Of a DNA stretch of 64,000 bases, positions 33,506 through 50,331 are shown piece by piece. This DNA is from Verrucomicrobiota bacterium (GTDB taxonomy: Bacteria; Verrucomicrobiota; Verrucomicrobiia; Limisphaerales; J093). How positions within the stretch are numbered: the first letter of the stretch is position 1; every line of letters begins with the position of its first letter. The notes beneath the pieces were generated by a model. The model had not been told where the DNA came from and did not search any database. It saw only the letters and a program-made list of their open reading frames with translations. The DNA is taken from the NCBI GenBank assembly GCA_022710935.1, contig JAKLFY010000005.1, forward strand, positions 14,087 through 78,086, read 5' to 3'. Both the position numbers and the translations under genes were made by a program.

Positions 33506-33695
33506 GACGCAGGTTGAGAAATATCCCGCCCCGGTCAAGGGAAGTTTTCAACGGACGGTCCCAGCCGGCACGCGCAGTGAGGTCAGCCACGGGAGCCAAC
33601 CGCCGAGGACGTTCCATCTGCCCGCGGGTCGAGCGGCCGGCCCGAGGTGGCCGCACCGAGTTGAACGATTCTCATGTCGTCGCTGTCGTTGCTCC

Positions 33696-33740
33696 ATGAA
33701 ACCCGCGCCCAGCAAGGAGAATTGGCTCATCGGTTCAGCA
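33696..33740 (+). repeat. 45-nt dispersed repeat, copy 1
   Basis: ATGAAACCCGCGCCCAGCAAGGAGAATTGGCTCATCGGTTCAGCA. It matches the reverse complement of 52861-52905 at 44 of 45 positions. Confidence 0.9.
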
Positions 33741-33883
33741 ATGCCGGTTCAGAAGACCAGCCATCCGGTGGTCATGCTTTCTTCTTCGCCAAAGACCGCC
33801 ACGATTTCGCCGGTATCCTGTCGAATCCAATCTGGGTATTTGAGTTCAGGATAATTGCTTGCCCCGGGGTCGTCTCTTACCAA

Positions 33884-36800
33884 ATGCTCCGGATAATGCT
33901 CTGGAACATGTGTTGGGTGCCTTTGGCTGTACGGCGGAGTCATTGTTCTTTCTGCCGGCTTCTACTCATAGCCGTGACGGTTGCTGGCTTTGCGGGTGTC
34001 GTCTCGAGTCGTGAAGCACTTGCACAGGGTCTTTCGTTGCCCAAACCCATCGTGCTTGAGGATTTCGAGAATGTTGCCGAGGGTGCCATTCCGGTCGGTT
34101 GGCGCCGGGAGCATCACTCGACGGTTTCCCAATCCACGACCTCCTTGCAGGATTTGAACTCGGTGTCTTACGCAAACTGGCTGGTGGTGAACGCGTCGCG
34201 CTTCCGCACCGCTTTCCAGACCTACTCGAGCCACACGCCGGTCGATTATTCGCGTGTGCTGACCTCCAACCCCGAGAACGTGGTCAATGGCCGGCTGGTG
34301 ACCGAACTGGCGCGGGGGCGAATGCTGTTCAGCGATTCCGGTTATCGGGATGGTGTGCAGGTCATGTACCTCGACACCTCGGATTATGATCTTACCGGCA
34401 GGACGAACGTTCATGTCGCGATGAACAGCCTTTACGAACAGAACCAGGATAACATCGCGGCCCTCGAGTACTCGATCGACCGCGGCGCGAACTGGCTGCC
34501 GGTCGTCTACTATCTGGACTCCAAAGACATTCTCACCACGGCCGGCCAAATCGATGCCGTCAGGACTTTCAACACCCGCTACTCCGACGTGGCGACCTAT
34601 CGCGACCCTGCGACCGGCGCCACGGTCGGCGGCTACTATGGCGCGTTTATCAAAGCCCCTGTTTCGCAGGCTCTCGCGCCGTTCATTGCTGGGCGGACCG
34701 ACGATGACCCCGTCAGTTCAAAGCGGGTGGAGCTCTTCCGCCTGGCGGCGGCGGACAACCAGGCTGCCGTCCGCTTCCGTTTTGCTCATGCGGGCACGGA
34801 TAGCTGGTATTGGGGCATCGACAACTTCGGCCTGTACAGCATTACCCCGGGGCAGATGCCGGTCATTGTGGCCGCTCCAGCCGATCTGGAAGTGACGGCT
34901 GGGCTCGAGGCAACCTTCCGGGTGGTCGCCGCGGGTGTGGAGCCGCTGGCGTATCAGTGGCTGTTCAACGGCACAAACATCGCGGGCGCCACCAATGCGA
35001 TCCTGACCCTGACGCCGGCGGACAACCCGCGGCAGGGAGACTACACCGTGGTCATTTCCAACCTGTTTGGCGTCATCGAGAGCGGCCCGGCCCGGCTGAC
35101 GCTGTCGCACCCCAGGGTGACCGGGCAGTGGGACTTCGATCAGGGCGACCTCCGAGCGACCGTAGGCGCCGACCTCGAGTTCGTTGCCGACACCGCTTCG
35201 GTCGTCTCGTTCGCGCCGGCGGAGTTCCAAGGCGGGGTTGCGGGCGTTATGGAGTATGGCCCGTTTTCACCCCGGCAAGGGCTCTACATGCGCCACGGCG
35301 CAAACCCGAACGGGGGCGGCCGTTTCGTGAATCGTTACACGCTGCTCATGGATGTCAGGTGTGATTTCGAGAGCAGCGGCTCGCTCCGCGCCGTTCTGCA
35401 AACCGATCCCTTCAACCACGACGGGAACGAAGCCGACTTTCTCATCGGCGCCGCCAACGGTCTGGGCGGCCCGAACGGCCTGGGCGCGGACAGCCAATTT
35501 CACGGATCGGCTGCGCCTGACCAGTGGCACCGCATCGCCTTCGCGGCGGACCTTGCCGCCGAACCGGGCCGCCAACTCTCGAAGTACATCGATGGGGTCC
35601 TGGTCGGCCAGCAATCGCTGCCCGGGGGAATCGACGGCCGCTATGCGCTGGGCCCCACGGCATTGCTGTTCACTGGCGGGCTCGCCGCGGAGGCTGCCGC
35701 ATCGGGCGCCGTGAACAGCATCCAATTCGTCGACACCTGGCTCACGCCCGCCGCGATTGCCGAGCTGGGCAACCCGACAGCCCAGGGCCTTCCGCCGGGC
35801 GAACATGCTCTGACGCTCACCCTGGCCGCGTTTGAAGGCGAGGCGCTGCGACTGCAATGGACCGGACCCGCCGGCTGGTACGAGGTGCAGAAGGCCACGA
35901 AGCTCACTCCGCCCGATTGGGAGGTCTGTTCAAACCCGACCAGCAACCACACCATCGTCCTGCAGGGAACTGGGGAAGCCGCCTTCTACCGCGTCCGCCA
36001 ATCCGAAGCGAACATGACCGTTGGCCAACTGCCTGGCGGCGCCCAGTCTCTGCCCAGCATGCAACTGGTCCGCCCCGCGGGCGATTCGCTGCAATTCTCC
36101 GGGCGCCCGGTCGACCTGGCCCTCTCTCCGGACCGGCGAACCGTCTACGTCAAAAACATCAACAACCTGCTGGTGATCGATGCGAACGCCTGGAGAGTGC
36201 GGCAAACACTGCCATACCCGGCTGGCGGCGCCTCGATGCATGGCATCGCCGTGTCCCCGGATGGCCGACGGGTTTACGTCACCGGCGCCGGCAACGAGCT
36301 TTACGAGTGGGGAGTGGATGCCGAGGGCGTGGTGACATTCTCCCGGACCATTGGTCTGCCCGCCGGCTCCTACCCCTGCGGCATTGCGTTGTTTGGGAGC
36401 GGCGACCGCGCCGCCGTATGTCTTTCCATTCCCAATCGGCTGGCCATTGTGAATCTCACCACCGGCACGCTCCTTTCCAGCGTCCGTGTCGGCATTGCCC
36501 CGTGGGACGTCGTGCTTTCGTCTGACGAATCCACGGCGTTCGTTTCGGACTGGGGCGGTCGCTGGCCGGACGCAAACGACCTCAAGGCGCCTTCCGCGGG
36601 AACGCCGGTTGTGGTGGACGAGCGCGGAATTGGGGCGAGCGGCGTGGTGTCCTTTGTCAACCTGGCGGTAAGCCGCGAAACGGGCCAGGTCCCCACCGGT
36701 CTTCATCCGTCAGACCTCGAGCTGTCTCCGGACGGCCGCGCGCTGTATGTCGCCAATGCGAATTCCGATACCGTCACCATCATCGATACCACGACCCGCT

Positions 36801-38512
36801 CCGTGAGGGAGAATGTCCTGGTGCGGCCTGATGACGACTTTCCCTATGGCAGCGCGCCCACCGGGCTCGCGCTGAGCGCGGATGGCTCGCGCCTGTTTGT
36901 CGCGCTCGGGGGAAATAATTGCATCGCCGTCGTGGCCCTCTCTGCCACGCCGGGCGAGAGCGCGGTCACGGGTTTTCTGCCCACCGACTGGTATCCTGGC
37001 GCGGTAGCCGCCGTCCAGGACCGCCTCTACGTGGCAAGCGTGAAGGGACTCGGCTCGCGACTCGGGCAACCCACTGCCACCAGCTACCAGATCGGCGCTC
37101 ACCTCGGAACGGCGAATCGGATCACCATCCCCGACCAGGAAACCCTGAGCAAACTGAGCGCGCGCTCTTTCGAGGACGGGCGGGTGCCGGCCATCCGCCG
37201 CGCTCATGAACGAGGCGTCCCGACCCGCCCGCCCGTGCCGGTGCCCGCTCGGCTTGGAGAACCCTCCGTGTTCGAGCACGTGCTCTATATCCTGAAGGAG
37301 AACAAGACCTACGACCAAATGTTCGGGGACATCAAGGAAGGCAACGGCGACCCCAACCTGTGCATCTACCCGGAATTGGTCTCTCCGAATCACCATGCCC
37401 TCGCCCGGCAGTACGTTCTGCTGGATAATTTCTACTGCAACGGCGTGGTTTCGGCCGATGGACATTCCTGGTCCACCGAAGCCAATGTCACGGACCATCT
37501 CGAGAAGGCGTTTGGCGGGTTTGCCCGCAGCTATACCTTCGGCGACGACCCGCTCACCTATTCTTCGAGCGGGTTTATCTGGGACAATGTCCTCCGCCAC
37601 GGCCTCAGCTTCCGCAATTATGGCGAGATGGACTACGCTTCGCCGTCCGGAAACGAGACCTGGCTGCAGATCCACGACGATTTTGTGAGCGGCCGCAGGT
37701 CGGTCCGCTACCTTCAAAACATCGGCATCGAGAACCTTCGGCGCTGCAGCTCGACGAACGTTCCCGGCTGGAACATGGGGATCCCGGATATCGTCCGGGC
37801 CGACGGTTTCCTCCGCGAGTTGCGCGAGGCTGAGGCCCGGGGCGCCTGGGAGAACTTCAGCTTTCTTTACCTGCCCAACGATCACACCGGCGGCCCGCCA
37901 ACCCCCCGCGCCCAGGTGGCGGATAATGACCTCGCCCTTGGGCGGGTGGTCGAAGCCGTCACGCGCAGTCGCTTCGCCACCAATACGGTCATCTTCGTCA
38001 TCGAAGACGATCCCCAGAGCGGCTACGATCACGTGGACGCGCACCGCTCTCTCTGTTTGGTGATCAGTCCTTACACCCGGCGTGAGGCGGTCATCAGCAC
38101 GTTCTACAACCAGGCTGGGGTCGTCCACACCATGGAGCGCATCCTCGGTCTGCCTCCCATGAACCAGCAGGATGCCATGGCCCCGCTGATGTTCGATTGT
38201 TTCACGGACGTGCCGAACTTCGCGCCCTACACCGCCCGCGCCAACAACATTCCGCTCGACGAGGGTGCTCGGAAGGTGGGTTCCCTTACCCCCGCACAAC
38301 TCCACTGGGCGGCGCAGTTGAAGACAATGGACTTCTCGAAACCCGACCGCATCGATGACGACCTCTTCAATCGGTACATCTGGTTTGCGAACAAGGGCGA
38401 TGCTCCCTATCCCGTGGAGTTTGTGGGAGCGCACGGGAAGGGCCTGAAACAGCTCGGCCTGGTCCTCGCGGCCGGAAGGGCGGATGAGGACGATGAGGAG
38501 GAGGATGACTGA
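33884..38512 (+). CDS. large secreted multidomain protein: N-terminal beta-sandwich, Ig-like, YncE-like beta-propeller and phosphoesterase (PLC/AcpA-type) domains
   Basis: Signal or anchor sequence after ATG 33884. Ig repeat with YQWLFNG. Internal ...EAAFYRVRQSE module. Propeller repeats (LYVANANSDTVTIID, VYVTGAGNELYEW). Phosphoesterase motifs FEHVLYILKENKTYDQMFGD and SADGHSWSTEA. Acidic tail. Confidence 0.8.
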   Translation: MLRIMLWNMCWVPLAVRRSHCSFCRLLLIAVTVAGFAGVVSSREALAQGLSLPKPIVLEDFENVAEGAIPVGWRREHHSTVSQSTTSLQDLNSVSYANWLVVNASRFRTAFQTYSSHTPVDYSRVLTSNPENVVNGRLVTELARGRMLFSDSGYRDGVQVMYLDTSDYDLTGRTNVHVAMNSLYEQNQDNIAALEYSIDRGANWLPVVYYLDSKDILTTAGQIDAVRTFNTRYSDVATYRDPATGATVGGYYGAFIKAPVSQALAPFIAGRTDDDPVSSKRVELFRLAAADNQAAVRFRFAHAGTDSWYWGIDNFGLYSITPGQMPVIVAAPADLEVTAGLEATFRVVAAGVEPLAYQWLFNGTNIAGATNAILTLTPADNPRQGDYTVVISNLFGVIESGPARLTLSHPRVTGQWDFDQGDLRATVGADLEFVADTASVVSFAPAEFQGGVAGVMEYGPFSPRQGLYMRHGANPNGGGRFVNRYTLLMDVRCDFESSGSLRAVLQTDPFNHDGNEADFLIGAANGLGGPNGLGADSQFHGSAAPDQWHRIAFAADLAAEPGRQLSKYIDGVLVGQQSLPGGIDGRYALGPTALLFTGGLAAEAAASGAVNSIQFVDTWLTPAAIAELGNPTAQGLPPGEHALTLTLAAFEGEALRLQWTGPAGWYEVQKATKLTPPDWEVCSNPTSNHTIVLQGTGEAAFYRVRQSEANMTVGQLPGGAQSLPSMQLVRPAGDSLQFSGRPVDLALSPDRRTVYVKNINNLLVIDANAWRVRQTLPYPAGGASMHGIAVSPDGRRVYVTGAGNELYEWGVDAEGVVTFSRTIGLPAGSYPCGIALFGSGDRAAVCLSIPNRLAIVNLTTGTLLSSVRVGIAPWDVVLSSDESTAFVSDWGGRWPDANDLKAPSAGTPVVVDERGIGASGVVSFVNLAVSRETGQVPTGLHPSDLELSPDGRALYVANANSDTVTIIDTTTRSVRENVLVRPDDDFPYGSAPTGLALSADGSRLFVALGGNNCIAVVALSATPGESAVTGFLPTDWYPGAVAAVQDRLYVASVKGLGSRLGQPTATSYQIGAHLGTANRITIPDQETLSKLSARSFEDGRVPAIRRAHERGVPTRPPVPVPARLGEPSVFEHVLYILKENKTYDQMFGDIKEGNGDPNLCIYPELVSPNHHALARQYVLLDNFYCNGVVSADGHSWSTEANVTDHLEKAFGGFARSYTFGDDPLTYSSSGFIWDNVLRHGLSFRNYGEMDYASPSGNETWLQIHDDFVSGRRSVRYLQNIGIENLRRCSSTNVPGWNMGIPDIVRADGFLRELREAEARGAWENFSFLYLPNDHTGGPPTPRAQVADNDLALGRVVEAVTRSRFATNTVIFVIEDDPQSGYDHVDAHRSLCLVISPYTRREAVISTFYNQAGVVHTMERILGLPPMNQQDAMAPLMFDCFTDVPNFAPYTARANNIPLDEGARKVGSLTPAQLHWAAQLKTMDFSKPDRIDDDLFNRYIWFANKGDAPYPVEFVGAHGKGLKQLGLVLAAGRADEDDEEEDD

Positions 38513-38860
38513 GTTACTGCCCCGTCGAGAAGGTTGAAGCTTACGCCAGCGGCAATGCCAATTCGCCTGGCTTCAACCGGCTCGCCCAAGGTGACAAAGG
38601 CGCCGTTCGGCACAACCGAAAGTCGAATTACGCCATGGCGGATGGAAGCGGTTCGCTCCTGGACCCCGGGCGCATCGCCACGCGCATCTCGCCGGAGCCA
38701 CGCCAGCCTCTTTTCCTGCGTTGCCTCGCATCCACTGGCAAAGGCCGATGAGGAAACGGGCCCCGATCCTCGATTCGCAACGTGTGCGCGGTGCGGGCCA
38801 ACCGCGATGCCAGCCCAGCGACTGGACCATACAGATTCCTGTTTTTCGGGACCGACCCCT

Positions 38861-39376
38861 TTATGAAGCTGAATTCGTCGAAGCGCGACACGACGACTTC
38901 GCCAGGCTGTGAGTGGTTTCGTTTCGGGGCTGTCGTGGGTGCGCTTCTATTAGCCGAAGCCTGCTTTGCTCCGCGAGCGCGCGCATAATTCTTGATACAC
39001 ACCAGTCAGGGCGCTTTGCGAGGTCGTGCTGCCAAATTCGTAGAACGCGCCAGCCTTTCTTGCGCAGAGCGCGGTTTACGTGGAGGTCACGAGTCCTGTT
39101 TGCGGACAGCTTCCGCCTCCAAAAGGCGCGATTGCTCACCGGAGTGCTGCAATGTATCGGGCAGCCGTGCCAAAAGCAGCCGTCCACGAAAACGGCCAGG
39201 CGTGACGCTCGAAAGACAAAATCCGGACTTCCGAACACGGTCTGGTTCCGCCTCCATCCCACGATCCCCCGACTCCGCATCAAGGTGCGCAGTCTCTGTT
39301 CTGTGGCACGGTTTCCCTTCGATCGAATTCGGGACATTATTTCGGATCGAAACCTAGCTGAAAAAACATCTGCCAT
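38861..39376 (-). CDS. vsr: very short patch repair endonuclease
   Basis: RSKGNRATEQRLR...PDFVF...AVFVDGCFWHGC...WRVLRIWQHDL. The last 35 aa or so may be read-through. Confidence 0.9.
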   Translation of the reverse strand: MADVFSARFRSEIMSRIRSKGNRATEQRLRTLMRSRGIVGWRRNQTVFGSPDFVFRASRLAVFVDGCFWHGCPIHCSTPVSNRAFWRRKLSANRTRDLHVNRALRKKGWRVLRIWQHDLAKRPDWCVSRIMRALAEQSRLRLIEAHPRQPRNETTHSLAKSSCRASTNSAS

Positions 39377-39417
39377 GAATGCGGTCCGACAAGCCTAGAC
39401 TCCAGTTGGGCGGGACT

Positions 39418-40488
39418 TCAGCGCCGTCGATGAACACCATTCGCGCCTTTCCTGCGGACAGCGTGTGCGGCGAGGGCACGCCTCACTTCCACCGCCTGCC
39501 GACGCACAAGTTCGGGAGGCAGTGCGTTGCCGATCATCAAGGCTACCCCCTGCTTTCCGGCAGTGAGGTCAAATTTGTATCTTCGCGGAAACGTCTGAAT
39601 CAGCGCCGCTTCGCGCATGGTGATATTCCGGTTCTCCACCGGATGGAGGAATCGGCCCTTTGACGGGTTGAAACATCCACCGGTGATTGTCGGGGCAACA
39701 TCATCCCAGGCCATGCGACCATAGATGTCCTTGAAACCGTCGCAGCGTCGATGACACTCAAGTTGCATGCTCGCGGGCAGATCGCGGCGGCTGCCTCCGT
39801 CCTTGGGGATTCGTGCAATCTTGCGGCGAACTTCCATGCTGCGCTGTTCAGGCAGATCGTGCAAAGGGTCGCCACTTTTTCCGGCTGGCGGCAGGTTTCC
39901 TATGGCTTGTCGGACGGTGCGATGTGTTCGAGCCGGTCGCGGGAAAGAAACCTCCAAGGTGAGTCCGGCAATCAGCACAAGTCGCCGCCGGCGTTGAGGG
40001 ACGCCGAAATCCTGCACATCCACAATCTCCCACTGCACTCTGTAACCCATTGACTCCAACGCGGTGGTGAATTCTCGGAACACCTTCTTCTCCCCGAGTC
40101 GCGGGACATTCTCCATCATGACTGCCTTTGGCCGCATCTCCTGCACCAGCCTCAGCATTTCTTTGACGAGGTTGTTCCGCGGGTCGCGATTTCGAGTCGC
40201 GCCATTGCGTGTCCGCAATGTCGAAAACCCCTGGCAGGGCGGACAGCCGACCAGCAGATCGAGTTCTCCCCGTTTGATCGTCAGTTCGCGCATCCACTTT
40301 CGCCCCTTGATGTCCCGGATGTCGTTCTGCGACAACTTCGTCCCGGGGTGGTTCAGTGCGTAGGTTTTTCCCGCCAAGGGATCAATTTCCACGGCACCAA
40401 TCACCTTGAACCCCGCGCGACACAGCCCTTCGGTTACCCCGCCGCAACCCGCAAACAAATCAATCGCTGTTGGTCGTCTTCGCTCCAT
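39418..40488 (-). CDS. dcm: DNA (cytosine-5)-methyltransferase
   Basis: Motif I DLFAGCGG, motif IV GCPPCQGFS, motif VI MENVPRL, motif VIII QRRRRLVLIA and motif X GNALPPEL. ATG 40488 lies 4 nt after the upstream stop. Confidence 0.95.
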   Translation of the reverse strand: MERRRPTAIDLFAGCGGVTEGLCRAGFKVIGAVEIDPLAGKTYALNHPGTKLSQNDIRDIKGRKWMRELTIKRGELDLLVGCPPCQGFSTLRTRNGATRNRDPRNNLVKEMLRLVQEMRPKAVMMENVPRLGEKKVFREFTTALESMGYRVQWEIVDVQDFGVPQRRRRLVLIAGLTLEVSFPRPARTHRTVRQAIGNLPPAGKSGDPLHDLPEQRSMEVRRKIARIPKDGGSRRDLPASMQLECHRRCDGFKDIYGRMAWDDVAPTITGGCFNPSKGRFLHPVENRNITMREAALIQTFPRRYKFDLTAGKQGVALMIGNALPPELVRRQAVEVRRALAAHAVRRKGANGVHRRR

Positions 40489-40492
40489 GCCG

Positions 40493-42556
40493 TCAAACCT
40501 CCCCGTCTCTGTATATGTCCACCGAAGTCTCAAGACATGGGCGCAGATCGAAATCATTCATGCCCAGTCCGGAGCGGGGCCGATCGATCCGCTGGTAAAT
40601 GTCGAAGCCCCGGCCAATCTTCACGATCCATCCGTTGTCCAAATGAATCTTCCGATCGTGAAGGCGTGAATCGAAAGTAAACTCAAACGCGATTGAATGC
40701 TGTTTGAGATCATCCACCAGGGCATCCAGCTTCTCGGACACCTCCACCTCCTGTGATTGGTCGTCGGCTCCGGTTACCAACCGAATCCTCTCGGCATCAC
40801 CCGTTTTCACCACCAGCTCGCAGAATCGTGTAAAATTGGCAATTTGGTGCGGCAGGCGGATATACGGATCCTCTATTCGGATCACTTTCGCCCCGGCGAG
40901 ATACGGTCCGAGCATCTTTTCGTAGCTGTAACCGGTATCCCCGTAGTGAATCGTAAAGTGCTTCTCCTTCAGTGAGGGGCGAGTCGCTTCTGCGGCGTCT
41001 GACGCGGCCACAGCCTGCGGCTCCACTGCCCTCGGCGCACTCGCACTTGGCGCGGTCTGCTTGTCCGCAGAGGGCAGCGGTTCCTGAGCTGCCACGCCGC
41101 CAATCCCCTTCGATTCCTGACAATGCACCGCCTGCTCCTGACCGTCTGCCTTGAAGAACGAGAATTGGAGTGCGGCAAACTCATCGTCCGGTTTTCGCTT
41201 GTTCAACTGCTCTTTCACGCGTCGACGTCCTTCCAAGGCATACTCCAGATACTCATTGAATTCCTGGTCGGAAGGTTCGCCGTGTGGGTGCAACAACTTC
41301 AAGAACCCCGCCACCGTCTTGATGACGGCAGTCTCATCGCGGCCGCGCACGGCGGCGCCCAGCCGTGCCTTCCCCTTCACGAATGCGTAGCGGTTTGTCT
41401 GCTTTGCCAGGTGGTGCAGGGCTTCCGCCAGATAATCCGTGATGAACCCGTAACTCGCAGTCAACAAATCGCTGCTATTCGGCGGAATCTCCCAGCCCGG
41501 CAGGTAGGTGTGAAACCGATGCAACACCGCCAGGTCAAAGGCTTCCGGCAGCGGTTTGAAAAGATCATGGTCCGGCGAGCGCACGAGGGCCTCAATCGAG
41601 TCATCAATGTTTCCAATGAAGGCGAGGCTGGCGTTGGCGATGATTTCCGCCGGGCCGCGGCTGAATCGTCCGTTTGCCATGTAATCCTTCATGATCTGAA
41701 TCGTGTCCCGATCCTTTACCCGGATGCCGGCGACCTCGTCGAAAGCCACCACATCCCAAAACCCGATGATCCCCACGCGGCGACGCTGGTTATTGTAGAA
41801 CAGGACGGAGGTGCTCGCCTGTCCGCCGCTGACCAGGGTCACATACGGCGAGAATTCACTGAATACGTAGGACTTGCCGGTGCCGCGCGGCCCCAATTCA
41901 ATGAAGTTGTAGTTCGCCTCGACAAAGGGGATCAGCCGGGTCAGGAAGTGCAGTTTGAGCCGTTTGGTCAGCTTGGTTGGCTCCAGCCCGACTGAACGCA
42001 GCAGCACATCCATCCAGGCGTCCCGACTGAACTGCTGCGCACCCTCGCAATAACGGGTGAAGTCGAATCTTGAGAGCTGCACGGGCCGGAGATCCTCAAC
42101 GTAGAAAGCGTAATCGTCATCCTCCACATCGTTGTAACCCAGCGTCACCTCCGCCCAAATGCCACCCTCCAGCAGGCGGTCGTTTTCCCGGTAGAACTTC
42201 TCGTTGATCGCAATGCGGCGCGAGTTGAAGTTCTCCATCGCCGCCCAGTGTCGTTTCTCCCGCTCCACATAGGAAACATGGATCTTGTCGATGAATTTGT
42301 GGCTGCCCTTCTGTTGCACCAGTGATTGTGCCCGGTTTGACTCGTCCGGGCGCACGTAGTTCTGCTGGATCGTCTCCAGCACGGCTGCGATGCCCGCCTG
42401 AATCTCGTGCGGATCATCTGTTGCACAGAATTTCGCGAGCAGGAATTCCAGCACAAAGGAGGGCACGTTTGTGCCCTTCTTGATCTGGTGCAGCAGATCT
42501 TTGCGCACGACGCACCCGGAAAATGTCCGGTTCAACTGTTGGTCGAGGTCATCCAT
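40493..42556 (-). CDS. BrxL-like AAA+ ATPase with a C-terminal MIT_C (MITD1-type phospholipase-D-like) domain in place of the Lon protease domain
   Basis: The N-terminal 460 aa or so are BrxL/TIGR02688-like (FSGCVVRKDLLHQIKKGTNVPSFVLEFLLAKF, Walker A GPRGTGKSY, Walker B VVAFDEV). An Ala/Pro-rich linker follows. The C-terminus carries EDPYIRLPHQIANFTRFCEL, LHDRKIHLDNGWIVKIGRGFDIY and DFDLRPCLETSVDIY. These match my memory of the human MITD1 C-terminal domain (DPYIR..[46 protein letters not shown]). Confidence 0.8.
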   Translation of the reverse strand: MDDLDQQLNRTFSGCVVRKDLLHQIKKGTNVPSFVLEFLLAKFCATDDPHEIQAGIAAVLETIQQNYVRPDESNRAQSLVQQKGSHKFIDKIHVSYVEREKRHWAAMENFNSRRIAINEKFYRENDRLLEGGIWAEVTLGYNDVEDDDYAFYVEDLRPVQLSRFDFTRYCEGAQQFSRDAWMDVLLRSVGLEPTKLTKRLKLHFLTRLIPFVEANYNFIELGPRGTGKSYVFSEFSPYVTLVSGGQASTSVLFYNNQRRRVGIIGFWDVVAFDEVAGIRVKDRDTIQIMKDYMANGRFSRGPAEIIANASLAFIGNIDDSIEALVRSPDHDLFKPLPEAFDLAVLHRFHTYLPGWEIPPNSSDLLTASYGFITDYLAEALHHLAKQTNRYAFVKGKARLGAAVRGRDETAVIKTVAGFLKLLHPHGEPSDQEFNEYLEYALEGRRRVKEQLNKRKPDDEFAALQFSFFKADGQEQAVHCQESKGIGGVAAQEPLPSADKQTAPSASAPRAVEPQAVAASDAAEATRPSLKEKHFTIHYGDTGYSYEKMLGPYLAGAKVIRIEDPYIRLPHQIANFTRFCELVVKTGDAERIRLVTGADDQSQEVEVSEKLDALVDDLKQHSIAFEFTFDSRLHDRKIHLDNGWIVKIGRGFDIYQRIDRPRSGLGMNDFDLRPCLETSVDIYRDGEV

Positions 42557-42557
42557 A

Positions 42558-45098
42558 TCAAGTCAGGATTTCCACTTTCAGTTTCAAAGGTAATCCGTAG
42601 GTCAATCCCGTCTCCGCATCCACGGCCCGGACTTCCATCGGTCCGACGAAATCTTCGACGATCCGCATCGGCACTTTCACAGCCTGCCCCGCCTTCAGCT
42701 TCACCACGCCGGTTGCAGGATCGACATGTGCACAGGACGCCGCTTCCCCGATGACGGTTTCCTGGGATCGGACCTTGGCCCTCGCTTCCAGCCGGAACGA
42801 CACCTCGCTGGCAAACAATTCTCCGCCGAATACGCTCACATCCAGCACCGGCCGTCGGGTCGTCACCGTGCCTTGCGCTTCCCCTCGGTAACGCAATTGC
42901 ACGTCCACCGCAGAGTGCGGCTCCGCTTCTTGATTACCCAGGTCAACTTCGATCAGAGGCGTTACCGCCTCCTGCAGGGAGAGGCCCTCGTGAAAATAGG
43001 GGTGCCGCTTGTTGAATGTCCCCAATGAGCGGGGAACCAGGTAGGACTCCACCTCCCCCTGAATGCCGACCTGTTCCTTGCCAAAGAGTATCGTCCCGGG
43101 AGTCGCCGATCCCCGCCCGAGCATGCACCGGTCTTTGACTTGGATCCAGTCCCCTTGGGGCTTCGCCACGGTGTCGCCCGCCGCCAGGCCGGGATGCAGG
43201 ACAAATCCGTGGTCGGTGGTGAAGATCACGTGGTGAAATCCCAGCTTCTTGAGTTTGCCGACAGCGGCGATCAGTTTCGCCAGAACATGAGGGAGGAACA
43301 GACAAACGTTGCTCGCATCCATCTCCCCCTGCTCGTCAATGTCGGTGGTCATGACCAGCAGCAGATCAACACCGCTCAGAGGCTCCGGCTTTTTCTTCCC
43401 CGCAGGCTTGAGCGCGATCAAATCGTCCAAGTCCAGCAGCTTCGTGCGGTCGCCGTAAAACTCCTGCGTGTAGGCAAAACGCTCAGCCGGCGTGCGAATC
43501 GGCTTGCCGTGCAGTGTCGGCACCAGCTTGTCCTCCGATATTTTCAGAACCAGATTTCCATCCGCTTTGGGTAACAGCGAAGCCATTCCGACGGCGGTAA
43601 TGGTCGGCAACTGTGCGCAGACCGACTTCAGCCGGCAGGTATAGCTGCCGCCCAGTTGCCGCTCCAGCGCCGTCCCCAATTCAAAGCGCAGGGCATCTAC
43701 AAAGAACAACGCGACTCTTTTGCCGCGCGTATCCAGGAGCGGGGCGATGCATTTGTCAAAGACCTGCGTGGCGCGCAGTCGTCCGCTGGTTGGCCACCCC
43801 TCCTTGGCCACACAATCAATGAATCGGCGCTGCAACTCCTCGGCGACCGCGAGAAACCGATGTCGTGCCGACTCGATCAATTCCTCGACGCCGTCGCTTT
43901 CTCCGTAGGTGTCGGCCACAGCTTTTTCCAGCTCGCGATGAGCTTGATCCAACCGGTAGGCCCGCCCTGTGTAGAAGGAAATCAGATCGTCCGCTGATTT
44001 TCCCGCCGCCGGCAAATCCCGTTCCAAATCTCCGGCGATCACGAGGAGTTCTCGGGCGCGTTCGGCGACCGTCCACAACATGCCGCGATCCGTATGCTTC
44101 ACCCATACGGACTCCTTCCGCTGGTCGGCAATCTCCGCTGCGGCTCCCCAATTGCCCGTCAAAAGTGCTTTTACGTATTGCCGAAGGAAACTGCGCTCCT
44201 CGAATGCGAAAGTGTCCCGCTTCCCCAGATCCGGCACTTCACGGGTCCTCGCTTCCAGCGTCAGCTCGGCAGCCACATTTCCGGCGCGGGCGATGTAGCT
44301 CGCATGATGCTTCTCCTGCCGCAGCGTATCACACACGCGGTTGACCAGCGCCTCGGCGCTCAGCTTTGCCCGGGGAATACCGGCCAAACTCTCCGGAAGT
44401 CCACCGGGCAGGTCGAGGGCGAATTCACTGAACAACACGAATCGCCAGAATTCCTCCGCCAGCGCATCCCACTTCTTCGTCTTGGTTTTGGGCGTGAAAC
44501 CAAGTTGCGAGCCGAACAGTTCTTTCGCTTCGGTTGCCCAGCCGTCGGTGGATTTCAGCTTCAGGAGCTGTTCAGCGTTGGGAACGAGAAGCGCAGTTAT
44601 GATTTCGGCCGCGGACTCGACGCCCAGCAGTGTTTGCAGTTGCGGCCAATGGTTTCCACCTTCGACCGCATCAATCATCGCCAGGTCCGGCGTGCCACTG
44701 CTGAACAACTCGCGAACCTTGTCCCGGTGGTCGGGTTTGGCCTTCTCACACAGACTTTGAAATGAATCGTCGTCGCTGCGCGGAAACCAGTCTGAGCCGG
44801 CGGCAATACCGCTGAACGGATCGTGACATCGTTCCTCGGGCGTCTTCGGCCTGTCCATCGGCACATACACGACCAATCGGCGCTCTGCTGCCTCGGCTTT
44901 CCCGAGCCCAGCCCAACATTCGACCGCGCGTTCGTGCGCTTCGATGAACGACTCCGAGGCATCCAGCACCATGCATTGCTCGTTCATCATGGTCAGCACC
45001 AGGTTGCGGTAGCGCCTGGCAGCATCATACACCACCAGCGCGCCCGCTTTGTCGGCCCGCTCGCGTAGTGTCGTTTGAATGAATTGCCCGATCTTCAT
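42558..45098 (-). CDS. pglZ: BREX-type alkaline-phosphatase-fold protein PglZ
   Basis: 846 aa. PglZ core RVALFFVDALRFELG, LPTITAVGMASLLP and VIFTTDHGFVL. N-terminal region typical of BREX type-1-like PglZ. Confidence 0.9.
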   Translation of the reverse strand: MKIGQFIQTTLRERADKAGALVVYDAARRYRNLVLTMMNEQCMVLDASESFIEAHERAVECWAGLGKAEAAERRLVVYVPMDRPKTPEERCHDPFSGIAAGSDWFPRSDDDSFQSLCEKAKPDHRDKVRELFSSGTPDLAMIDAVEGGNHWPQLQTLLGVESAAEIITALLVPNAEQLLKLKSTDGWATEAKELFGSQLGFTPKTKTKKWDALAEEFWRFVLFSEFALDLPGGLPESLAGIPRAKLSAEALVNRVCDTLRQEKHHASYIARAGNVAAELTLEARTREVPDLGKRDTFAFEERSFLRQYVKALLTGNWGAAAEIADQRKESVWVKHTDRGMLWTVAERARELLVIAGDLERDLPAAGKSADDLISFYTGRAYRLDQAHRELEKAVADTYGESDGVEELIESARHRFLAVAEELQRRFIDCVAKEGWPTSGRLRATQVFDKCIAPLLDTRGKRVALFFVDALRFELGTALERQLGGSYTCRLKSVCAQLPTITAVGMASLLPKADGNLVLKISEDKLVPTLHGKPIRTPAERFAYTQEFYGDRTKLLDLDDLIALKPAGKKKPEPLSGVDLLLVMTTDIDEQGEMDASNVCLFLPHVLAKLIAAVGKLKKLGFHHVIFTTDHGFVLHPGLAAGDTVAKPQGDWIQVKDRCMLGRGSATPGTILFGKEQVGIQGEVESYLVPRSLGTFNKRHPYFHEGLSLQEAVTPLIEVDLGNQEAEPHSAVDVQLRYRGEAQGTVTTRRPVLDVSVFGGELFASEVSFRLEARAKVRSQETVIGEAASCAHVDPATGVVKLKAGQAVKVPMRIVEDFVGPMEVRAVDAETGLTYGLPLKLKVEILT

Positions 45099-45104
45099 GG
45101 CGTC

Positions 45105-46961
45105 CTACCAACTGTCTGATCCGCCGCGCTTCTCATCGCGCGCCTGTTTTATACCGCAAAAACCCAGGAAGTCGCAATGCGAACACCGCGCCCCACCGCC
45201 CTGCCTTGCCTTCGGTCCTTCGCTGAATTTGCGGTTGCGAATGTCCGCGGCAGTGGTCGCCACCAGCTTCGTGGCCGCCGTCAGCGCGGCCGCATTCAGT
45301 GGCACGCTCAATTCCGCCTTCATCGCATCATCGGCGTCCAAGTAGCGGACCAGTCCCTGTTCGGGCTGATACTCCAATTCCTTTTTGGCCGCCACTGCAT
45401 ACAGCGCCACCTGTAACCGCATCTCTTCCTCGTCCAGCTTTTGGTGCTTGTCCGACTCCGGATCGCCGGACTTGAAGTCCACCAGCGTCACCTGCGGCGG
45501 ATTGTCCCGCCGGATGACGTCAATAGCTCCCGACACCAGCACGCCACCCTCGCCGTCTTCATACTCCACCAGCGTCTCAAAGCTCTTCTCCGGTTCAAAT
45601 GTCAACTCGCCCAGCTCGCCCGCATAACGCTCGATGTAATTCGCCACCACCTCCAACCCCTTTGCCCGCATGTTGTCCGCCGGATTGCCTGTCGTGTAGC
45701 GCAGGTAAAACAATCCGTGGTCAATCAACCCCTGGATTTCCCGCTCCAACGCCGGGCGATTCGTTGCCAGCGCCGCCCACTTCTTGGGATCCGAATGCAC
45801 GGCACGCATCAGGTTATGCACCCCGCGGCCGTAACCGAATGCCTGGTCGATGGTGGGCGCAAACCCGAGCACTTTTCTGAGATAGAAATCGTGCGGGCAT
45901 TCCAGATAGTAACGGAGGTCCGAGAAGGACGTGGCCAGCCGCACGTCCCGCAGATGCTCCTTGGGGGCATACTTCAGTTCGTTCAGCAGTTGTTGTGAGT
46001 CGTCGGTCACCGTTCCGCCGCTTTCGCTGACCATCGGGCGGAGTTCCTTGATGAAACTCGATGTCCGTTTTCCGCAGTGGCTGATGAACAGAAACCGCTC
46101 GGCGCGGGTCAGCGCCACATACATGAGCCGCCGCTCGCCGTCCCGGGTTTCATTGTCGGCCAGCCCTTCCACATCAATCTCCTCGACGATGCGTCCCTCC
46201 AGCGGCAGGTCCGGCTTCCGCCGGGCCATGCTGTTCGGAAAGCTGTTGGCGTTCACGGCGGCGAGGAACACCCCGGCGAACTCCAATCCCTTTGCACCGT
46301 GGATCGTGCTGATCGTGACTGCGTCCGGTTGGACCATCAGCGGCTGCTCCTCCGCCCGCGCCTCCTCGGAGCCGTATTGGCAAAGCCCGATGATCTGCCA
46401 GCGGTAGTCCCGGGTGCTTGTCCATCCGGGGGTTTCAATGCCCGTGATCAATCCGCTGAGCGCCCCAAGGTGGAACAATGCCGTCTGGCCGCGGCCCTCG
46501 CACGTGTCCCAGGCTTCCACCTCGGCCTCAGACAACAGCATGTGGAAGATCTTCTGGGGAAAGACGCGCCTCAGATCACCCGATTTGGTGAGAAACTCGC
46601 GCAACGAAGGGGTTCGGAAGGCCGCCGCTTTCTTTGGGTTGAGGGCCGTCCCGTGGTCAATCCGATCGGCAATCGCCCCCGCCGCCAGCAGCAGCCGGTC
46701 TTCGACCTCGCGGCTGAACGCCAGACCCGAGGCCCGTAACATCCGGGCCGATGCCCGCAGCACCTCCGTCGGATGAGGGGCACACCCCAACACTCCATCA
46801 ATCCGCTGGGGCAGACTTTTCGGGTTGTATTCCGACCCGAAGAATTCATCCATCCTTGCCGTCAGTGCCAGTGCCCCGACAAACAACAGAACCTCCGGCT
46901 GCGAGAACAAGTCCGGGCCGGCGCGCACCACGCAGGGGATGGCGCCTGTATCCTGATGCAC
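45105..46961 (-). CDS. UvrD-family helicase C-terminal half fused to a Cas4/AddB-like PD-(D/E)XK nuclease (no Walker A half)
   Basis: UvrD 2B-like IPCVVRAGPDLFSQPEVLLFVGALAL, motif V TISTIHGAKGLEFAGVFL and motif VI LMYVALTRAERFLFIS. Nuclease part: SFSDLRYYLECPHDFYLR, GAIDVI, LVDFKSG, QVALYAVA and Cys cluster CSHCDFLGFC. GTG start at 46961, first ATG at 46853. No ATP-binding motifs I to III are present. Confidence 0.75.
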   Translation of the reverse strand: MHQDTGAIPCVVRAGPDLFSQPEVLLFVGALALTARMDEFFGSEYNPKSLPQRIDGVLGCAPHPTEVLRASARMLRASGLAFSREVEDRLLLAAGAIADRIDHGTALNPKKAAAFRTPSLREFLTKSGDLRRVFPQKIFHMLLSEAEVEAWDTCEGRGQTALFHLGALSGLITGIETPGWTSTRDYRWQIIGLCQYGSEEARAEEQPLMVQPDAVTISTIHGAKGLEFAGVFLAAVNANSFPNSMARRKPDLPLEGRIVEEIDVEGLADNETRDGERRLMYVALTRAERFLFISHCGKRTSSFIKELRPMVSESGGTVTDDSQQLLNELKYAPKEHLRDVRLATSFSDLRYYLECPHDFYLRKVLGFAPTIDQAFGYGRGVHNLMRAVHSDPKKWAALATNRPALEREIQGLIDHGLFYLRYTTGNPADNMRAKGLEVVANYIERYAGELGELTFEPEKSFETLVEYEDGEGGVLVSGAIDVIRRDNPPQVTLVDFKSGDPESDKHQKLDEEEMRLQVALYAVAAKKELEYQPEQGLVRYLDADDAMKAELSVPLNAAALTAATKLVATTAADIRNRKFSEGPKARQGGGARCSHCDFLGFCGIKQARDEKRGGSDSW

Positions 46962-47514
46962 TCAGGCCCAGCCGCTGCATGACCCGGTCCAGGGAATGTC
47001 CCGTTCCCCGCGTCGTCCCGAACAGCCGCCGCGAAAACGCAATGGTGTCGATGGATTCGACGGTTCGGATGCGTGCTCGATGTCGCCTGCAGGTTGCTTC
47101 CAGGAATTTGGTGTCAAACCGGTGGCCGTTATGCGCCATGATCACCGAGTCGCCGACGAATTGGGAAAACTGCGACAGCACCTCAATGGGCCGTGGCGCG
47201 TCGCGCACGTCCCGGTCTGTGATGCCGGTGTAATCGGAAATGAACCGGGAGATCGGCTGACTTGGCCGGCAATAACTGAAGAAGGAGTCCCCCGCCACCA
47301 CCTCACCGTTCTGAAACCGCGTCGCGGCGATTTGAATGATTTCGCATCCGCCCGGATAAAGCCCCGTCGTTTCAAGGTCAAAGATGACGAATGAACCGCC
47401 TCCAACAACCGCGAACACATTGCCGCATTGCGGACAGCGGATGCGAGCCTCGGTCGCTGTCTCCGGGATTCTCAACGTAGCCCCGCATTGGCTGTTGCTG
47501 CACTTCGTGATCAT
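46846..47514 (-). CDS. zinc-ribbon plus DEDDh (DnaQ-like) 3'-5' exonuclease domain protein
   Basis: CSNSQCG...CPQCG zinc ribbon. Exo I FDLETTGL and Exo II MAHNGHRFD. The Exo III H-x4-D motif is not evident. The last 35 aa or so (RRHPLRGARRPGLVLAAGGSVVCRGTGTDGKDG) look out of frame and overlap the next ORF by 116 nt. Confidence 0.7.
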   Translation of the reverse strand: MITKCSNSQCGATLRIPETATEARIRCPQCGNVFAVVGGGSFVIFDLETTGLYPGGCEIIQIAATRFQNGEVVAGDSFFSYCRPSQPISRFISDYTGITDRDVRDAPRPIEVLSQFSQFVGDSVIMAHNGHRFDTKFLEATCRRHRARIRTVESIDTIAFSRRLFGTTRGTGHSLDRVMQRLGLSASGYRRHPLRGARRPGLVLAAGGSVVCRGTGTDGKDG

Positions 47515-47522
47515 GGCAAATT

Positions 47523-47792
47523 CTAAATGTTGGTGCGCGGCGCTACGACACCTGGTTCATCCTGAACGGAGATTTTATAGAAGTGGCTGGGGCCGACGCC
47601 GGAGGTGAAGCGTTCAACGCTGAATCGATCGGGTTTCACATACCACGCTTGAGCGATCTTCCAGCGCGCTGCCACAATCGCTGATGCCAGGCCGCAGACC
47701 TTTGAGCCCGTTAGACCGATCTCCACGTTGTATCCGCTTTGGTGGTAGAGCTGAGAATACAGTTTCGTCAGGAAATCTATGTTCTCCTTCAA
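47523..47792 (-). CDS. hypothetical protein (89 aa)
   Basis: The TTG start overlaps the brxC stop (ATTTGAAGG). Noticeably AT-richer than its surroundings. No family recognised. It could be a frameshifted continuation of brxC. Confidence 0.35.
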   Translation of the reverse strand: MKENIDFLTKLYSQLYHQSGYNVEIGLTGSKVCGLASAIVAARWKIAQAWYVKPDRFSVERFTSGVGPSHFYKISVQDEPGVVAPRTNI

Positions 47793-49750
47793 ATCAGTCG
47801 ACGAGAGCGGGTAGCAATGCGCTCGTCCCGACGTTTGTCATAGACGGCGGCGTCCACCAACTCGATCACGTATTGGACCGGTTCGCGTTCGCCCAGCAGC
47901 GAAACCATCTGCGCCCCCACCGTTGTCTTCATGCCGGCGGTCACGCTCCGGGTGCCTTCCAGGCGCACTTCCGGCTGGTGCGTGAAGATCTGGGTGAGTT
48001 TCTCGTTTAGAACTTTCCGCAGGTCGCGGTCGAACACGTTGATCTTGCCCTTGGCGGCTTCCATCTCCGCCACGGCTTCGCTCATGAAGCGGAGCTTGCC
48101 GTCCACTTCGTTCAGGTGGACCGCCTTCTCCTCCATCAGACGCGTGACCGCAGCTTTCACCGATTCCATTTGGGAAGGAGCATCCACCCGGGGATGCAGC
48201 AGTGCGCCCACGTTCTCGCGGCTGATCGGGAAGTCGTCGAGCACCTGCAGCACGGCGATCACCTTGGCCACCTTCACTTCAAAGGAATCTCCGCTGAACG
48301 CCTTCTCAGCGCGGGCGACGCCATCAACGACATGTTTGAAGGAGCGTTGGATGTCGAGGCGCAGCGTGTCGTAGAACGTAATCGTGGTGGCCAACTCGCC
48401 GGCAGATGCGTCCGCCAGCAGTGCCTGACCGGAGCGCAAGCCGCTCTGATCCACCAGCACATCCTGGATGACCTTGATGGCGGACCGCAGGCCGATGCCG
48501 CCGCTCGTCTTCGCCAGGCGGCCAAGCAATTCCAGCAGGATGTCGAAGTGCTGCGGCAGGAACGGATAGAGCCGGCGGAATTCGTCTTTTTCCAAGGCCG
48601 ATTTGTAGTAGCGAGTGCCGGTTAGTTGCGTGTGATGTTTCAGCGCCGGGCCGTGCGTGTCGAAAAGGACAGCCAGGGTCTTGTCGCCCTCCGCCGACTT
48701 GGTCAGCAGCCGGTTGTAGCAGATCTCCCGGATGTCACTCGCCTCCAGGTCCACGCGAATGGGAAAGCGATCCGACAGCTTGAACAGTTTGGCGGAATTG
48801 AACCGGGCATTTGGATCGTCCTCGGTCAGGGTCTGTTGTGCCGTGGCGACCAGCCAGACCTTGCCGCCGCCGAGGTGTTTGACGTTCTTGGCCAGTCCGT
48901 CGAGGTTCAGGATAAGGTTGTCCCGTGCGGCGATGTATTGGCCGACCTCGTCGAGAATGAAGATGATGTTCGGTTTACCTGAGCGTCGGCGGACCAGTTC
49001 CAACATCTCCGCCACACGCTCGTTTTCCTTCTCGGCTTCGTCCACGCGCAACTTCTGGAATGCCGTCGCGTCGGGAAACACCTCGGGATAGAACTCGTGG
49101 GCCAACCGGGACGCGAATTGGTTGACGACCAGCGGCTGATTCTGAATCTGTTTCCACGTCTTGCCCTTGGACAACTCGACAATGCGTTTCTCGAATGCCT
49201 CCATTTTGCCATCCTTCTCCAGCATGAACTGGAGATAGGCGACCTTCTTGTCCTTCGAGTAGCCCGCCCACTGCATGACTGTCCAGTAGAGCACGGTGGA
49301 GATTTCCACCATCGTTGCGCCGGCGATCTGGGCGCTGGCCAGGTCCACCATGATGACCGTCGCCGGATAGCGTTTGGCCAAGGCACCGAGCTGTGCTTTG
49401 AGTGCCGCGGACTTTAGCTGTGCCTGCAGCCATTCGAGAAATGGCCGTTCGTCCACGGCACGAGAGGGATCAAGCGCAAATCCCAGATACTTCGTGAAGG
49501 AACTCTTGCCCGATCCGTAAAAGCCGGACACCCAGACACCGATTTCGTGTGCGCCGCCGCCAAGGCCGTCGTTCAGGTGCGACAAGAGGCGGTCGAAACT
49601 CCTGGCGATGTTGTCGGTGACGACATATTCGGTGACTTCCCGCTTGAGCTGGTCATTCTCGGTGCTGTCGAACGAAATGACCTTTTCGATTCGCCGGTCC
49701 AGACTGCGGCTGATTTCAAACAGGTCGCGTATTTTGCTCATGGGTGTCAT
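47789..49750 (-). CDS. brxC: BREX P-loop protein BrxC/PglY, N-terminal ATPase half only (653 aa)
   Basis: N-terminus KIRDLFEISRSLDRRIEKVISF....EYVVTDNIARSF and Walker A GVWVSGFYGSGKSSFTKYLG are typical of BrxC (DUF499). Walker B IIFILDEVGQY. From memory, canonical BrxC is about 1200 aa. Confidence 0.8.
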   Translation of the reverse strand: MTPMSKIRDLFEISRSLDRRIEKVISFDSTENDQLKREVTEYVVTDNIARSFDRLLSHLNDGLGGGAHEIGVWVSGFYGSGKSSFTKYLGFALDPSRAVDERPFLEWLQAQLKSAALKAQLGALAKRYPATVIMVDLASAQIAGATMVEISTVLYWTVMQWAGYSKDKKVAYLQFMLEKDGKMEAFEKRIVELSKGKTWKQIQNQPLVVNQFASRLAHEFYPEVFPDATAFQKLRVDEAEKENERVAEMLELVRRRSGKPNIIFILDEVGQYIAARDNLILNLDGLAKNVKHLGGGKVWLVATAQQTLTEDDPNARFNSAKLFKLSDRFPIRVDLEASDIREICYNRLLTKSAEGDKTLAVLFDTHGPALKHHTQLTGTRYYKSALEKDEFRRLYPFLPQHFDILLELLGRLAKTSGGIGLRSAIKVIQDVLVDQSGLRSGQALLADASAGELATTITFYDTLRLDIQRSFKHVVDGVARAEKAFSGDSFEVKVAKVIAVLQVLDDFPISRENVGALLHPRVDAPSQMESVKAAVTRLMEEKAVHLNEVDGKLRFMSEAVAEMEAAKGKINVFDRDLRKVLNEKLTQIFTHQPEVRLEGTRSVTAGMKTTVGAQMVSLLGEREPVQYVIELVDAAVYDKRRDERIATRSRRLI

Positions 49751-50331
49751 CCTCCAATGTGGACCGACCGGTAGTTCCCGTCGGGCGGATAGAAGCCGAG
49801 AAATCTCAGCGTGGTTTTTCCGTCACGGACTCCGGGATACAGAATCACGGTCGGGACGGTAAACTTGCCTTGGAGCTTTTGCTCCAGGACGCCGACGCGC
49901 AGATAAGGATGCAGGGCTTCCAGATCGGTGATGAAGAGCACGGTTTGCGCGCGGCCCCGGAGCGACTCCAGCCTGGTCTCGATCTTCCGCTTCAGAAGCT
50001 CATCGGCCGTCAGGGCGTCCTCCAGCGTCTTGTTGATCTCGGTCACGGACTCCCGGTCACACACAGTGTTCGCCGGGCTCGACAACCACACGTCGCGCAG
50101 TTCGTTGCTGCGGAAAATCTCCAGAACGGTGGCGGCCATCGACATCGTTTCCATGGTCCATCCCTGCTTGGCGAGCCGGGCCGCCCACTGTTTCTGCAGC
50201 CGTTTGATTTCGAGCATCTGCTCGGGCTTGAACACCAGGTAGTAAACGGGATCGTCGCCCGTGTTGGTCAGGCCGCGGCCCGCACGCAACCGCTGCCACA
50301 ATTCTTCAAAACTTTCACTGGGCGACGACAT
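49747..50331 (-). CDS. brxB: BREX protein BrxB (DUF1788-like)
   Basis: 194 aa from ATG 50331. DDPVYYLVFKPEQMLEIKR...ILYPGVRDGKTTLRFLGFYPPDGNYR is the typical DUF1788 pattern. The stop overlaps the brxC start (ATGA). Confidence 0.75.
   Translation of the reverse strand: MSSPSESFEELWQRLRAGRGLTNTGDDPVYYLVFKPEQMLEIKRLQKQWAARLAKQGWTMETMSMAATVLEIFRSNELRDVWLSSPANTVCDRESVTEINKTLEDALTADELLKRKIETRLESLRGRAQTVLFITDLEALHPYLRVGVLEQKLQGKFTVPTVILYPGVRDGKTTLRFLGFYPPDGNYRSVHIGG

Follow-up and report, generated by a model that had tools for sequence, protein, structure and literature searches.

The window, as the whole stretch of DNA analysed here is called, comprises 64,000 nt from a Verrucomicrobiota bacterium (Limisphaerales; J093) and corresponds to positions 14,087-78,086 of the forward strand of contig JAKLFY010000005.1 in assembly GCA_022710935.1. 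It carries on its reverse strand a bacteriophage exclusion (BREX) locus, the brxL gene of which is the main subject of this analysis (Table 1). The product of this open reading frame (ORF) is almost certainly a BrxL protein of the MIT_C type, a kind that is already known, and the identification is held this firmly because several independent methods agree. The domain libraries that were scanned are Pfam, PADLOC-DB (2023) and NCBIfam. The PADLOC BrxL model PDLC02508 aligns with residues 1-684 of the protein over positions 1-695 of its 698 (E 1.5e-262), and the score with the NCBIfam model TIGR02688 ('BREX system Lon protease-like protein BrxL'), 496.8, lies above the cutoff of 329.3, which places the protein within the BrxL family. 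One homologue (P0001) is likewise 687 aa long and is 98% identical.

The N-terminal part of the protein is composed of BrxL_N, a region that combines helix-turn-helix (HTH) and OB folds for DNA binding (PMC12839542), and of the AAA+ domain BrxL_ATPase. Both Walker motifs of the latter are intact, with G222, P223, G227, K228, S229, D273 and E274 invariant in 27 homologues. A phmmer search of the sequences in the Protein Data Bank (PDB) aligns residues 3-493 to the BrxL protein of Acinetobacter (8EMC, E 5e-135), with which the protein encoded in the window shares BrxL_N, BrxL_ATPase, Walker A, Walker B and the position within the operon (8EMC/8EMH). The C-terminus of the Acinetobacter protein, however, is a dead Lon-protease-like fold that serves in ring pairing, whereas a MIT_C domain of the phospholipase D (PLD) superfamily fold is found here, and the two kinds of protein fall into separate clades when compared over the region they share. 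The ATPase and the MIT_C domain are connected by an Ala/Pro/Ser-rich linker, the columns of which are not conserved in an alignment of 27 BrxL-MIT_C proteins (alignment A1). The linker is predicted to be disordered; its predicted local distance difference test (pLDDT) values are 51-66 in an AlphaFold2 (AF2) model that covers residues 501-687 with a mean pLDDT of 85.6 and of which the first 30 residues are poorly ordered.

The same phmmer search aligns residues 536-684 with human MITD1, in its C-terminal domain (4A5Z/2YMB, E 3e-36). The AF2 model of this part was also compared with known structures by Foldseek, where the MITD1 chains rank first with E 3e-19, a template modelling (TM) score of 0.88-0.90 on the target, a root-mean-square deviation of 2.2 Å and 42% identity over about 150 residues, and are followed by members of the PLD superfamily, namely Zucchini/MitoPLD (4GGJ, E 5e-5), the phosphatidylserine synthase PssA, vaccinia F13 and PLD. 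The bacterial and the human domain have in common the motifs EDPYIR, HQxxNFxRFCE, HDR, NGWxxKIGRG and DFDLRPCxET. What differs is the partner, as the N-terminal MIT domain of MITD1 binds ESCRT-III and acts in cytokinesis whereas MIT_C is joined here to a DNA-loading AAA+ ring protein; Pfam finds no match to the MIT domain (PF04212) in the brxL product, the N-terminus of which is made up of BrxL_N and the AAA+ ATPase and is unlike that of MITD1. Nor is there a Pfam match to Lon_C in the product, and the Lon-type model TIGR02653 reaches 579.1, under its cutoff of 628.25, in an alignment confined to positions 2-484 of 675, so that the protein does not belong to the Lon type. An initial annotation of this DNA had described a BrxL/TIGR02688-type N-terminus and AAA+ region, an Ala/Pro-rich linker and a stretch of about 150 aa resembling the C-terminal domain of MITD1 at the place taken in canonical BrxL by a Lon-like domain. 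All of this is confirmed by the matches to PF20442, PF13337, TIGR02688 and 8EMC, by the composition of the linker and by the structural comparison, and the three peptide motifs that it quoted are present and aligned with MITD1. The nuclease, membrane-binding and dimerisation roles that it suggested for the domain continue to be the options to weigh.

The same annotation implied that the fusion was new, and in this respect it does not hold, as the BrxL-MIT_C fusion is already published and counted, is included in the PADLOC BrxL model and is named BrxL by NCBI; an architecture already described as standard was the very condition under which the annotation would have regarded its point as refuted. 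MIT_C was described at the C-terminal end of numerous BrxL proteins, with WP_019470419.1 as an example, by Li et al. (2025, NAR gkaf357), who put forward an enzymatic activity as a hypothesis. A BREX survey of 2026 (NAR gkag035) calls the domain an 'HKD-endoDNase' tail with an HRD motif, shows an AlphaFold 3 model of it, proposes an auxiliary nuclease role and counts it in place of the Lon-like domain in 1030 of the 2913 type-1 BREX taxa that have BrxL (~35%). Among the BrxL proteins of type-1 BREX the MIT_C type is a major variant. The protein encoded in the window resembles the published examples (gkaf357, gkag035) in its HTH/OB N-terminus, its MCM-like AAA+ domain, its PLD fold with H-x-R...D and its place after pglZ, and is unlike them only in its local context, an operon that lacks pglX and half of brxC and has dcm and vsr after brxL.

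The fusion is uniform among close relatives. PF20442, PF13337 and PF16565 occur together in all of the 120 best matches from a collection of 5.8 billion proteins, which are 62-98% identical to the query and 670-742 aa long, and those members that NCBI has named are called 'BREX system Lon protease-like protein BrxL'. Among one-genome-per-species contigs, in the best 80 of 570 stretches encoding BrxL relatives, a MIT_C-type brxL always directly follows pglZ, and pglX and brxC lie upstream wherever the contig extends far enough. The hosts of such loci include Verrucomicrobia, Alpha-, Beta- and Gammaproteobacteria, Bacteroidota, Firmicutes, Chloroflexi, Acidobacteria, Planctomycetes and Spirochaetes. 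Relatives that have no MIT_C possess a Lon_C domain in the corresponding place (approximately residues 510-670), as the initial annotation had assumed for canonical BrxL, and differ little from the MIT_C type in overall length, at 670-690 aa. In a neighbour-joining tree of residues 1-490, which was built without bootstrap from a sample biased towards relatives of the query, 43 MIT_C-type sequences form one clade apart from 25 Lon-type sequences. Because the MIT_C type is a single clade and the other proteins have Lon_C at the same position, the sequences suggest that MIT_C replaced the Lon-like domain in one ancient domain swap and not in repeated fusions. A rare or recurrent fusion was also considered and rejected, given the presence of the fusion in 120 of 120 best homologues and the single clade of the MIT_C type.

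Table 1. Features of the brxL gene, its product and the surrounding BREX locus, in positions of the window
Feature	Positions	Strand	Description	Evidence
brxL	40493-42556	-	MIT_C/'HKD' type, 687 aa, intact ORF, ATG start	ORF list
BrxL_N	42134-42526	-	residues 11-141	Pfam PF20442, E 7e-45
BrxL_ATPase	41162-42106	-	AAA+ (MCM-like), residues 151-465	Pfam PF13337, E 1e-121
Walker A	41870-41893	-	GPRGTGKS, residues 222-229	
Walker B	41732-41749	-	VAFDEV, residues 270-275	
Linker	40964-41104	-	Ala/Pro/Ser-rich, disordered, ~47 aa, residues 485-531	66% A/P/S/E/Q
MIT_C	40508-40933	-	PLD-superfamily fold, residues 542-683	Pfam PF16565, profile 1-142 of 142, E 1.1e-46
IEDPYIR motif	40856-40876	-	residues 561-567, acidic residue after strand beta2	D563 invariant in alignment A1
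HxR(x)4D motif	40637-40660	-	H633-D-R635-K-I-H-L-D640, variant of HKD motif	alignment A1 and 150 MIT_C representatives
brxE	51100-51594	-	heads the operon	NCBIfam BrxE_fam, E 5.5e-36
brxA	50315-51103	-		Pfam and PADLOC BrxA
brxB	49747-50430	-		Pfam and PADLOC BrxB
brxC (partial)	47789-49750	-	N-terminal half only, 653 aa (full ~1200 aa)	PADLOC PDLC02483, positions 4-642 of 1212
Kinase/ORC-CDC6-like fragment	47523-47792	-	89-codon fragment; last ~100 codons of the gene remain (47523-47822)	tblastn
RNase_T exonuclease fragment	46846-47514	-	residues 1-196 of 231	Pfam, tblastn
Helicase-nuclease remnant	45105-46961	-	UvrD_C and PD-(D/E)XK, residues 432-1046 only	Pfam, tblastn
pglZ	42558-45098	-	846 aa	Pfam PglZ; PADLOC PDLC02561 full length, E 2.8e-254
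dcm	39418-40488	-	C5 DNA methyltransferase	Pfam DNA_methylase, E 3e-60
vsr	38861-39376	-	mismatch endonuclease	Pfam Vsr, E 1e-20

A complete type-1 BREX system comprises brxA, brxB, brxC, pglX, pglZ and brxL, but in the locus described here brxC is truncated and pglX is absent from the window, where tblastn with two PglX sequences found no PglX homologue over the 64 kb. In the window brxL lies directly downstream of pglZ after a gap of 1 nt, an order that is seen in 60+ related loci. The NCBIfam model NF033441 aligns to the brxC remnant at positions 1-615 of 1173 only, and homology to the BrxC protein of a related locus (L007) ends at window position 47816. Relatives with a BrxL that is 82-88% identical have intact counterparts of the missing or broken genes, which encode PglX of ~1350 aa, a kinase/ORC-like protein of ~1230 aa, an RNase_T protein of 231-245 aa and a helicase-nuclease of 1046-1058 aa. 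Comparison with two related loci (L005, L007) reveals a junction at ~47816-47822, at which brxC codon ~645 meets the end of the kinase/ORC-like gene, with the loss of the remainder of brxC and of the entire pglX. At a second junction, ~46927-46952 (blastn against L005, tblastn), residue ~196 of the RNase_T protein meets residue ~432 of the helicase with a loss of ~1.5 kb. A Limisphaerales contig from a metagenome-assembled genome (L067), which has 95% nucleotide identity to the window and is 100% identical over BrxL residues 1-242, has a helicase frame that is intact across this second junction. A lineage-wide deletion in the helicase was therefore rejected and, because L067 reads through the junction, the deletion either arose recently in this strain only or is an artefact of assembly.

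PglX is required for restriction by BREX. Because it is also a core component needed for the modification of self-DNA (NAR gkag035) and has been lost here, the brxL gene of the window is probably a recently orphaned remnant with an intact frame of its own and not part of a working system. It appears moderately probable that brxL in this genome is a non-functional leftover of a BREX system inactivated by deletion and has yet to acquire disabling mutations of its own, which would be compatible with any reading of its biochemistry. The missing PglX, the end of brxC near codon ~645 of ~1200 and the reduction of the kinase/ORC-like and helicase-nuclease genes to remnants all speak for such a state, and the intact helicase frame of L067 marks that particular deletion as recent. 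However, open frames of full length are retained in brxE, brxA, brxB, pglZ, brxL, dcm and vsr, the apparent deletions might have arisen in the assembly of a metagenome bin, and a part of their function might survive in BrxL, PglZ and Dcm.

The dcm gene starts 4 nt past the stop of brxL, its true start being probably the ATG at 40488 and not that at 40557. In Verrucomicrobial relatives dcm likewise directly follows brxL (L001, L003, L005, L006); vsr lies near dcm in L005 and L006, L001 has dcm together with a helicase-nuclease and vsr, and no vsr was seen in L003. More distant BrxL-MIT_C loci are without the dcm/vsr addition. The best score of pglZ is obtained with the BREX-6 PglZ model, under its cutoff. 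Together with the BrxE-family gene at the head of the operon this score gives the locus, as judged by sequence, type-6-like traits despite the presence of brxL; in the 2026 survey type 6 is treated as part of type 1 (NAR gkag035). The defence island (~38000-52000) has a G+C content of 0.58-0.61 as against 0.63-0.68 in the surrounding DNA, which is consistent with horizontal acquisition. Its flanks encode ordinary metabolism and transport, including a GH38 mannosidase, an SSF symporter, an ammonium transporter and a URO-D protein. The island is adjoined by a 1612-aa ORF (33674-38512, + strand) that was examined as a candidate pglX and rejected, as it encodes a protein with beta-propeller (YNCE/lactonase-like), Ig-like and phosphoesterase-family regions that is unrelated to BREX.

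The interest of the BrxL-MIT_C architecture lies in what the C-terminal domain might do. Li et al. (2025) defined a putative site in MIT_C that consists of a conserved Asp or Glu after strand beta2 and an HDR motif before beta5, and both elements are present in the protein described here, as E562/D563 and H633-D634-R635, and are invariant or nearly so. In alignment A1 the invariant residues of the domain are D563, R567, H570, Q571, N574, R577, C579, E580, T595, H633, D634, R635, G642, W643, G648, R649, G650, D652, D668, R672, C674, E676, T677 and D680, and D640 is conserved in at least 90% of the proteins. A wider sample was drawn by an HMMER scan of 1.84 billion representative proteins, which yielded 1243 MIT_C clusters at E <=1e-3, a number that falls to 655 at E <=1e-10; the best 150 of these, clustered at <=50% identity and with eukaryotes included, were analysed as MIT_C representatives. 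Conservation in this sample is highest for Q571 (147/147), R635 (144/146), H633 (143/146) and T595 (142/148), followed by D634 (137/146), R649 (135/140) and D563 (130/148, plus 17 with Glu). Position 640 is Asp in 99, Asn in 20 and Ser in 19 of the representatives; human MITD1 has Asn there, unlike the protein of the window and most bacterial members, which have Asp.

Position 636 is mostly Glu and is Lys in only 8 of the 150 representatives, so that of the HDRK motif singled out in the initial annotation the H-D-R is conserved, whereas Lys636 is confined to this protein and a few others. The conserved motif, as read from the aligned sequences, is HDR within HxR(x)4D. It is spaced exactly like the PLD signature HxK(x)4D, Arg standing where Lys would be, and the canonical signature with its catalytic Lys is not found, since Arg takes that place in 144 of 146 representatives. 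Each BrxL-MIT_C chain has one motif. In this, as in fold class and in the H-x-[K/R]-x4-D spacing, MIT_C is like the single-HKD nucleases such as Zucchini (4GGJ), for which one motif per chain implies a dimer, but it differs from them in its Arg, in a TM score of about 0.45, in an identity of 11-13% and in the lack of a sequence-profile link. To this group belong also Nuc, BfiI and NucT, single-HKD nucleases of the PLD superfamily.

MIT_C is also found outside BREX. Among the 150 representatives the accompanying domains are MIT in 24 (MITD1-like), BrxL_ATPase in 14, IF2_N in six and Dynamin_N in two, with single cases of S1, PC4, PUA-like, FHA and others, while most of the representatives are short and without a further Pfam domain. 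Many MIT_C proteins are 400-560 aa long and have uncharacterised N-termini, one protein of 915 aa (P0156) has a Dynamin_N-MIT_C arrangement, and another of 858 aa (P0147) has a Schlafen/AlbA_2 domain added C-terminally to a complete BrxL-MIT_C. The 42% identity that Foldseek reports between the bacterial and the human domain hints at a possible transfer between bacteria and eukaryotes.

The BrxL protein of Acinetobacter forms hexameric or heptameric rings that load onto double-stranded DNA in an ATP-dependent manner, and Lon-type BrxL's C-terminal domain, which lacks the catalytic dyad (NAR gkag035), pairs two such rings tail to tail (Shen et al. 2023). Strong homology shows that the protein of the window has the N-terminal region and AAA+ domain of such a BrxL ring, which assembles on double-stranded DNA with ATP. 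In place of the Lon-like domain it has a single-lobe PLD domain of the MITD1 type, tethered by the flexible linker of ~47 residues. Single-lobe PLD domains work as dimers. The C-terminal domain of MITD1 reportedly crystallised as a dimer as well, and its PDB entries 4A5Z and 2YMB contain four identical chains apiece. From the need of a single-lobe PLD domain for a partner lobe and from the MITD1 dimer we infer that the MIT_C domains most likely pair, within one ring or across two rings, and would thus take over ring pairing. A pair may in turn create a phosphodiester-binding pocket lined by H633, R635, D640 and E562/D563. In the leading and published hypothesis this pocket would cleave the DNA held by the ring, making BrxL an auxiliary BREX nuclease alongside PglZ. 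HKD enzymes cleave phosphodiesters by way of a phospho-histidine intermediate, and for MIT_C such chemistry is put forward in the literature as a hypothesis (Li et al. 2025; NAR gkag035). Taken as a whole, from the MIT_C-type BrxL through ring pairing and the pocket to the nuclease step, this explanation may be right or wrong with about equal probability. That MIT_C is a catalytically active nuclease or phosphodiesterase has a chance that falls just short of even, and the more specific proposal, already raised in the literature, that the Arg-substituted HxR(x)4D motif is competent and that the paired MIT_C domains of two BrxL rings cut the DNA they encircle is somewhat less likely than not.

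A nuclease is suggested by the near-invariant set of polar residues (Q571, H633, D634, R635, T595, R649, D563) combined with HKD-like spacing, and by the related PLD domain that is a predicted effector in Menshen (Li et al. 2025). Several observations weigh on the other side. A profile of the 150 MIT_C representatives run against the PDB sequences recovered MITD1 and, via its MIT-domain columns, VPS4, but no canonical HKD nuclease, therefore the link between MIT_C and the PLD superfamily rests on fold and motif spacing and not on a sequence-profile link; a literature search for MITD1 paired with HKD found nothing. H633 would occupy the position of the catalytic His on the basis of motif spacing and the literature. 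The loss of pglX and of a full-length brxC makes function in situ doubtful for the protein of the window. We know of no MIT_C domain for which an enzymatic activity has been demonstrated, and MITD1 is said to be a membrane-binding protein, going by the title of a 2012 paper by Hadders that is listed by Li and colleagues. The same change of Lys to Arg, K898R, is moreover the standard catalytically inactive allele of PLD1. The statement that HRD 'likely preserves' activity (NAR gkag035) is therefore an assumption, because K898R inactivates PLD1.

The Arg in place of the HKD Lys equally favours a view in which MIT_C is non-catalytic and serves as a module for pairing rings tail to tail, possibly as a passive clamp on phosphate or DNA. 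The Lon-type domain has set a precedent, as it drives tail-to-tail dimerisation of rings (Shen et al. 2023) and yet has no catalytic dyad (NAR gkag035), and MIT_C and Lon are swapped at the same position with almost equal total length (670-690 aa), as would be expected of interchangeable structural modules. MITD1 is without known activity and Li et al. (2025) call an enzymatic function only a hypothesis. However, some two dozen polar positions do not vary among the BrxL-MIT_C proteins, the polar core is kept in 88-100% of 150 divergent MIT_C domains that have differing N-terminal partners, which is more in keeping with an active or ligand-binding site than with a dimer interface, and the exact HxK(x)4D spacing is retained in the MIT_C motif. 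A purely structural or binding role is considered unlikely, though by no means negligible.

It has further to be weighed whether MIT_C acts as a membrane module, as in MITD1, that would anchor the BrxL ring to the inner membrane at the site of phage DNA entry. The PLD-like domain of MITD1 binds membranes according to the title of Hadders 2012, and fusions to membrane-remodelling domains do occur among the MIT_C representatives (MIT in 24/150 and Dynamin_N in 2/150). But BrxL is a DNA-loading ring (Shen et al. 2023), a membrane module is absent from BrxL of the Lon type and of type 4 (NAR gkag035) and other prokaryotic MIT_C fusions have the nucleic-acid-binding partners S1, PC4, PUA-like and AlbA_2, so that a tether is improbable. 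That the surviving PglZ and BrxL-MIT_C with the adjacent Dcm form a makeshift modification-restriction pair after the loss of pglX is very improbable indeed.

As a discovery the BrxL-MIT_C fusion matters little, since it is published and occurs in ~35% of the type-1 BREX taxa that bear BrxL. The question of a nuclease belongs to the whole family and not to the locus in the window, which is a poor place to pursue it because pglX and half of brxC are missing from its operon; intact homologues, such as those of Opitutaceae TAV4 (P0020) or Roseomonas ATCC 49961 (L019), are more suitable. If the HxR(x)4D pocket is a nuclease, it would provide BREX with a second DNA-cutting effector. It would then also be an HKD-type site that works even though the lysine is missing, and would suggest that human MITD1 is an enzyme as well.

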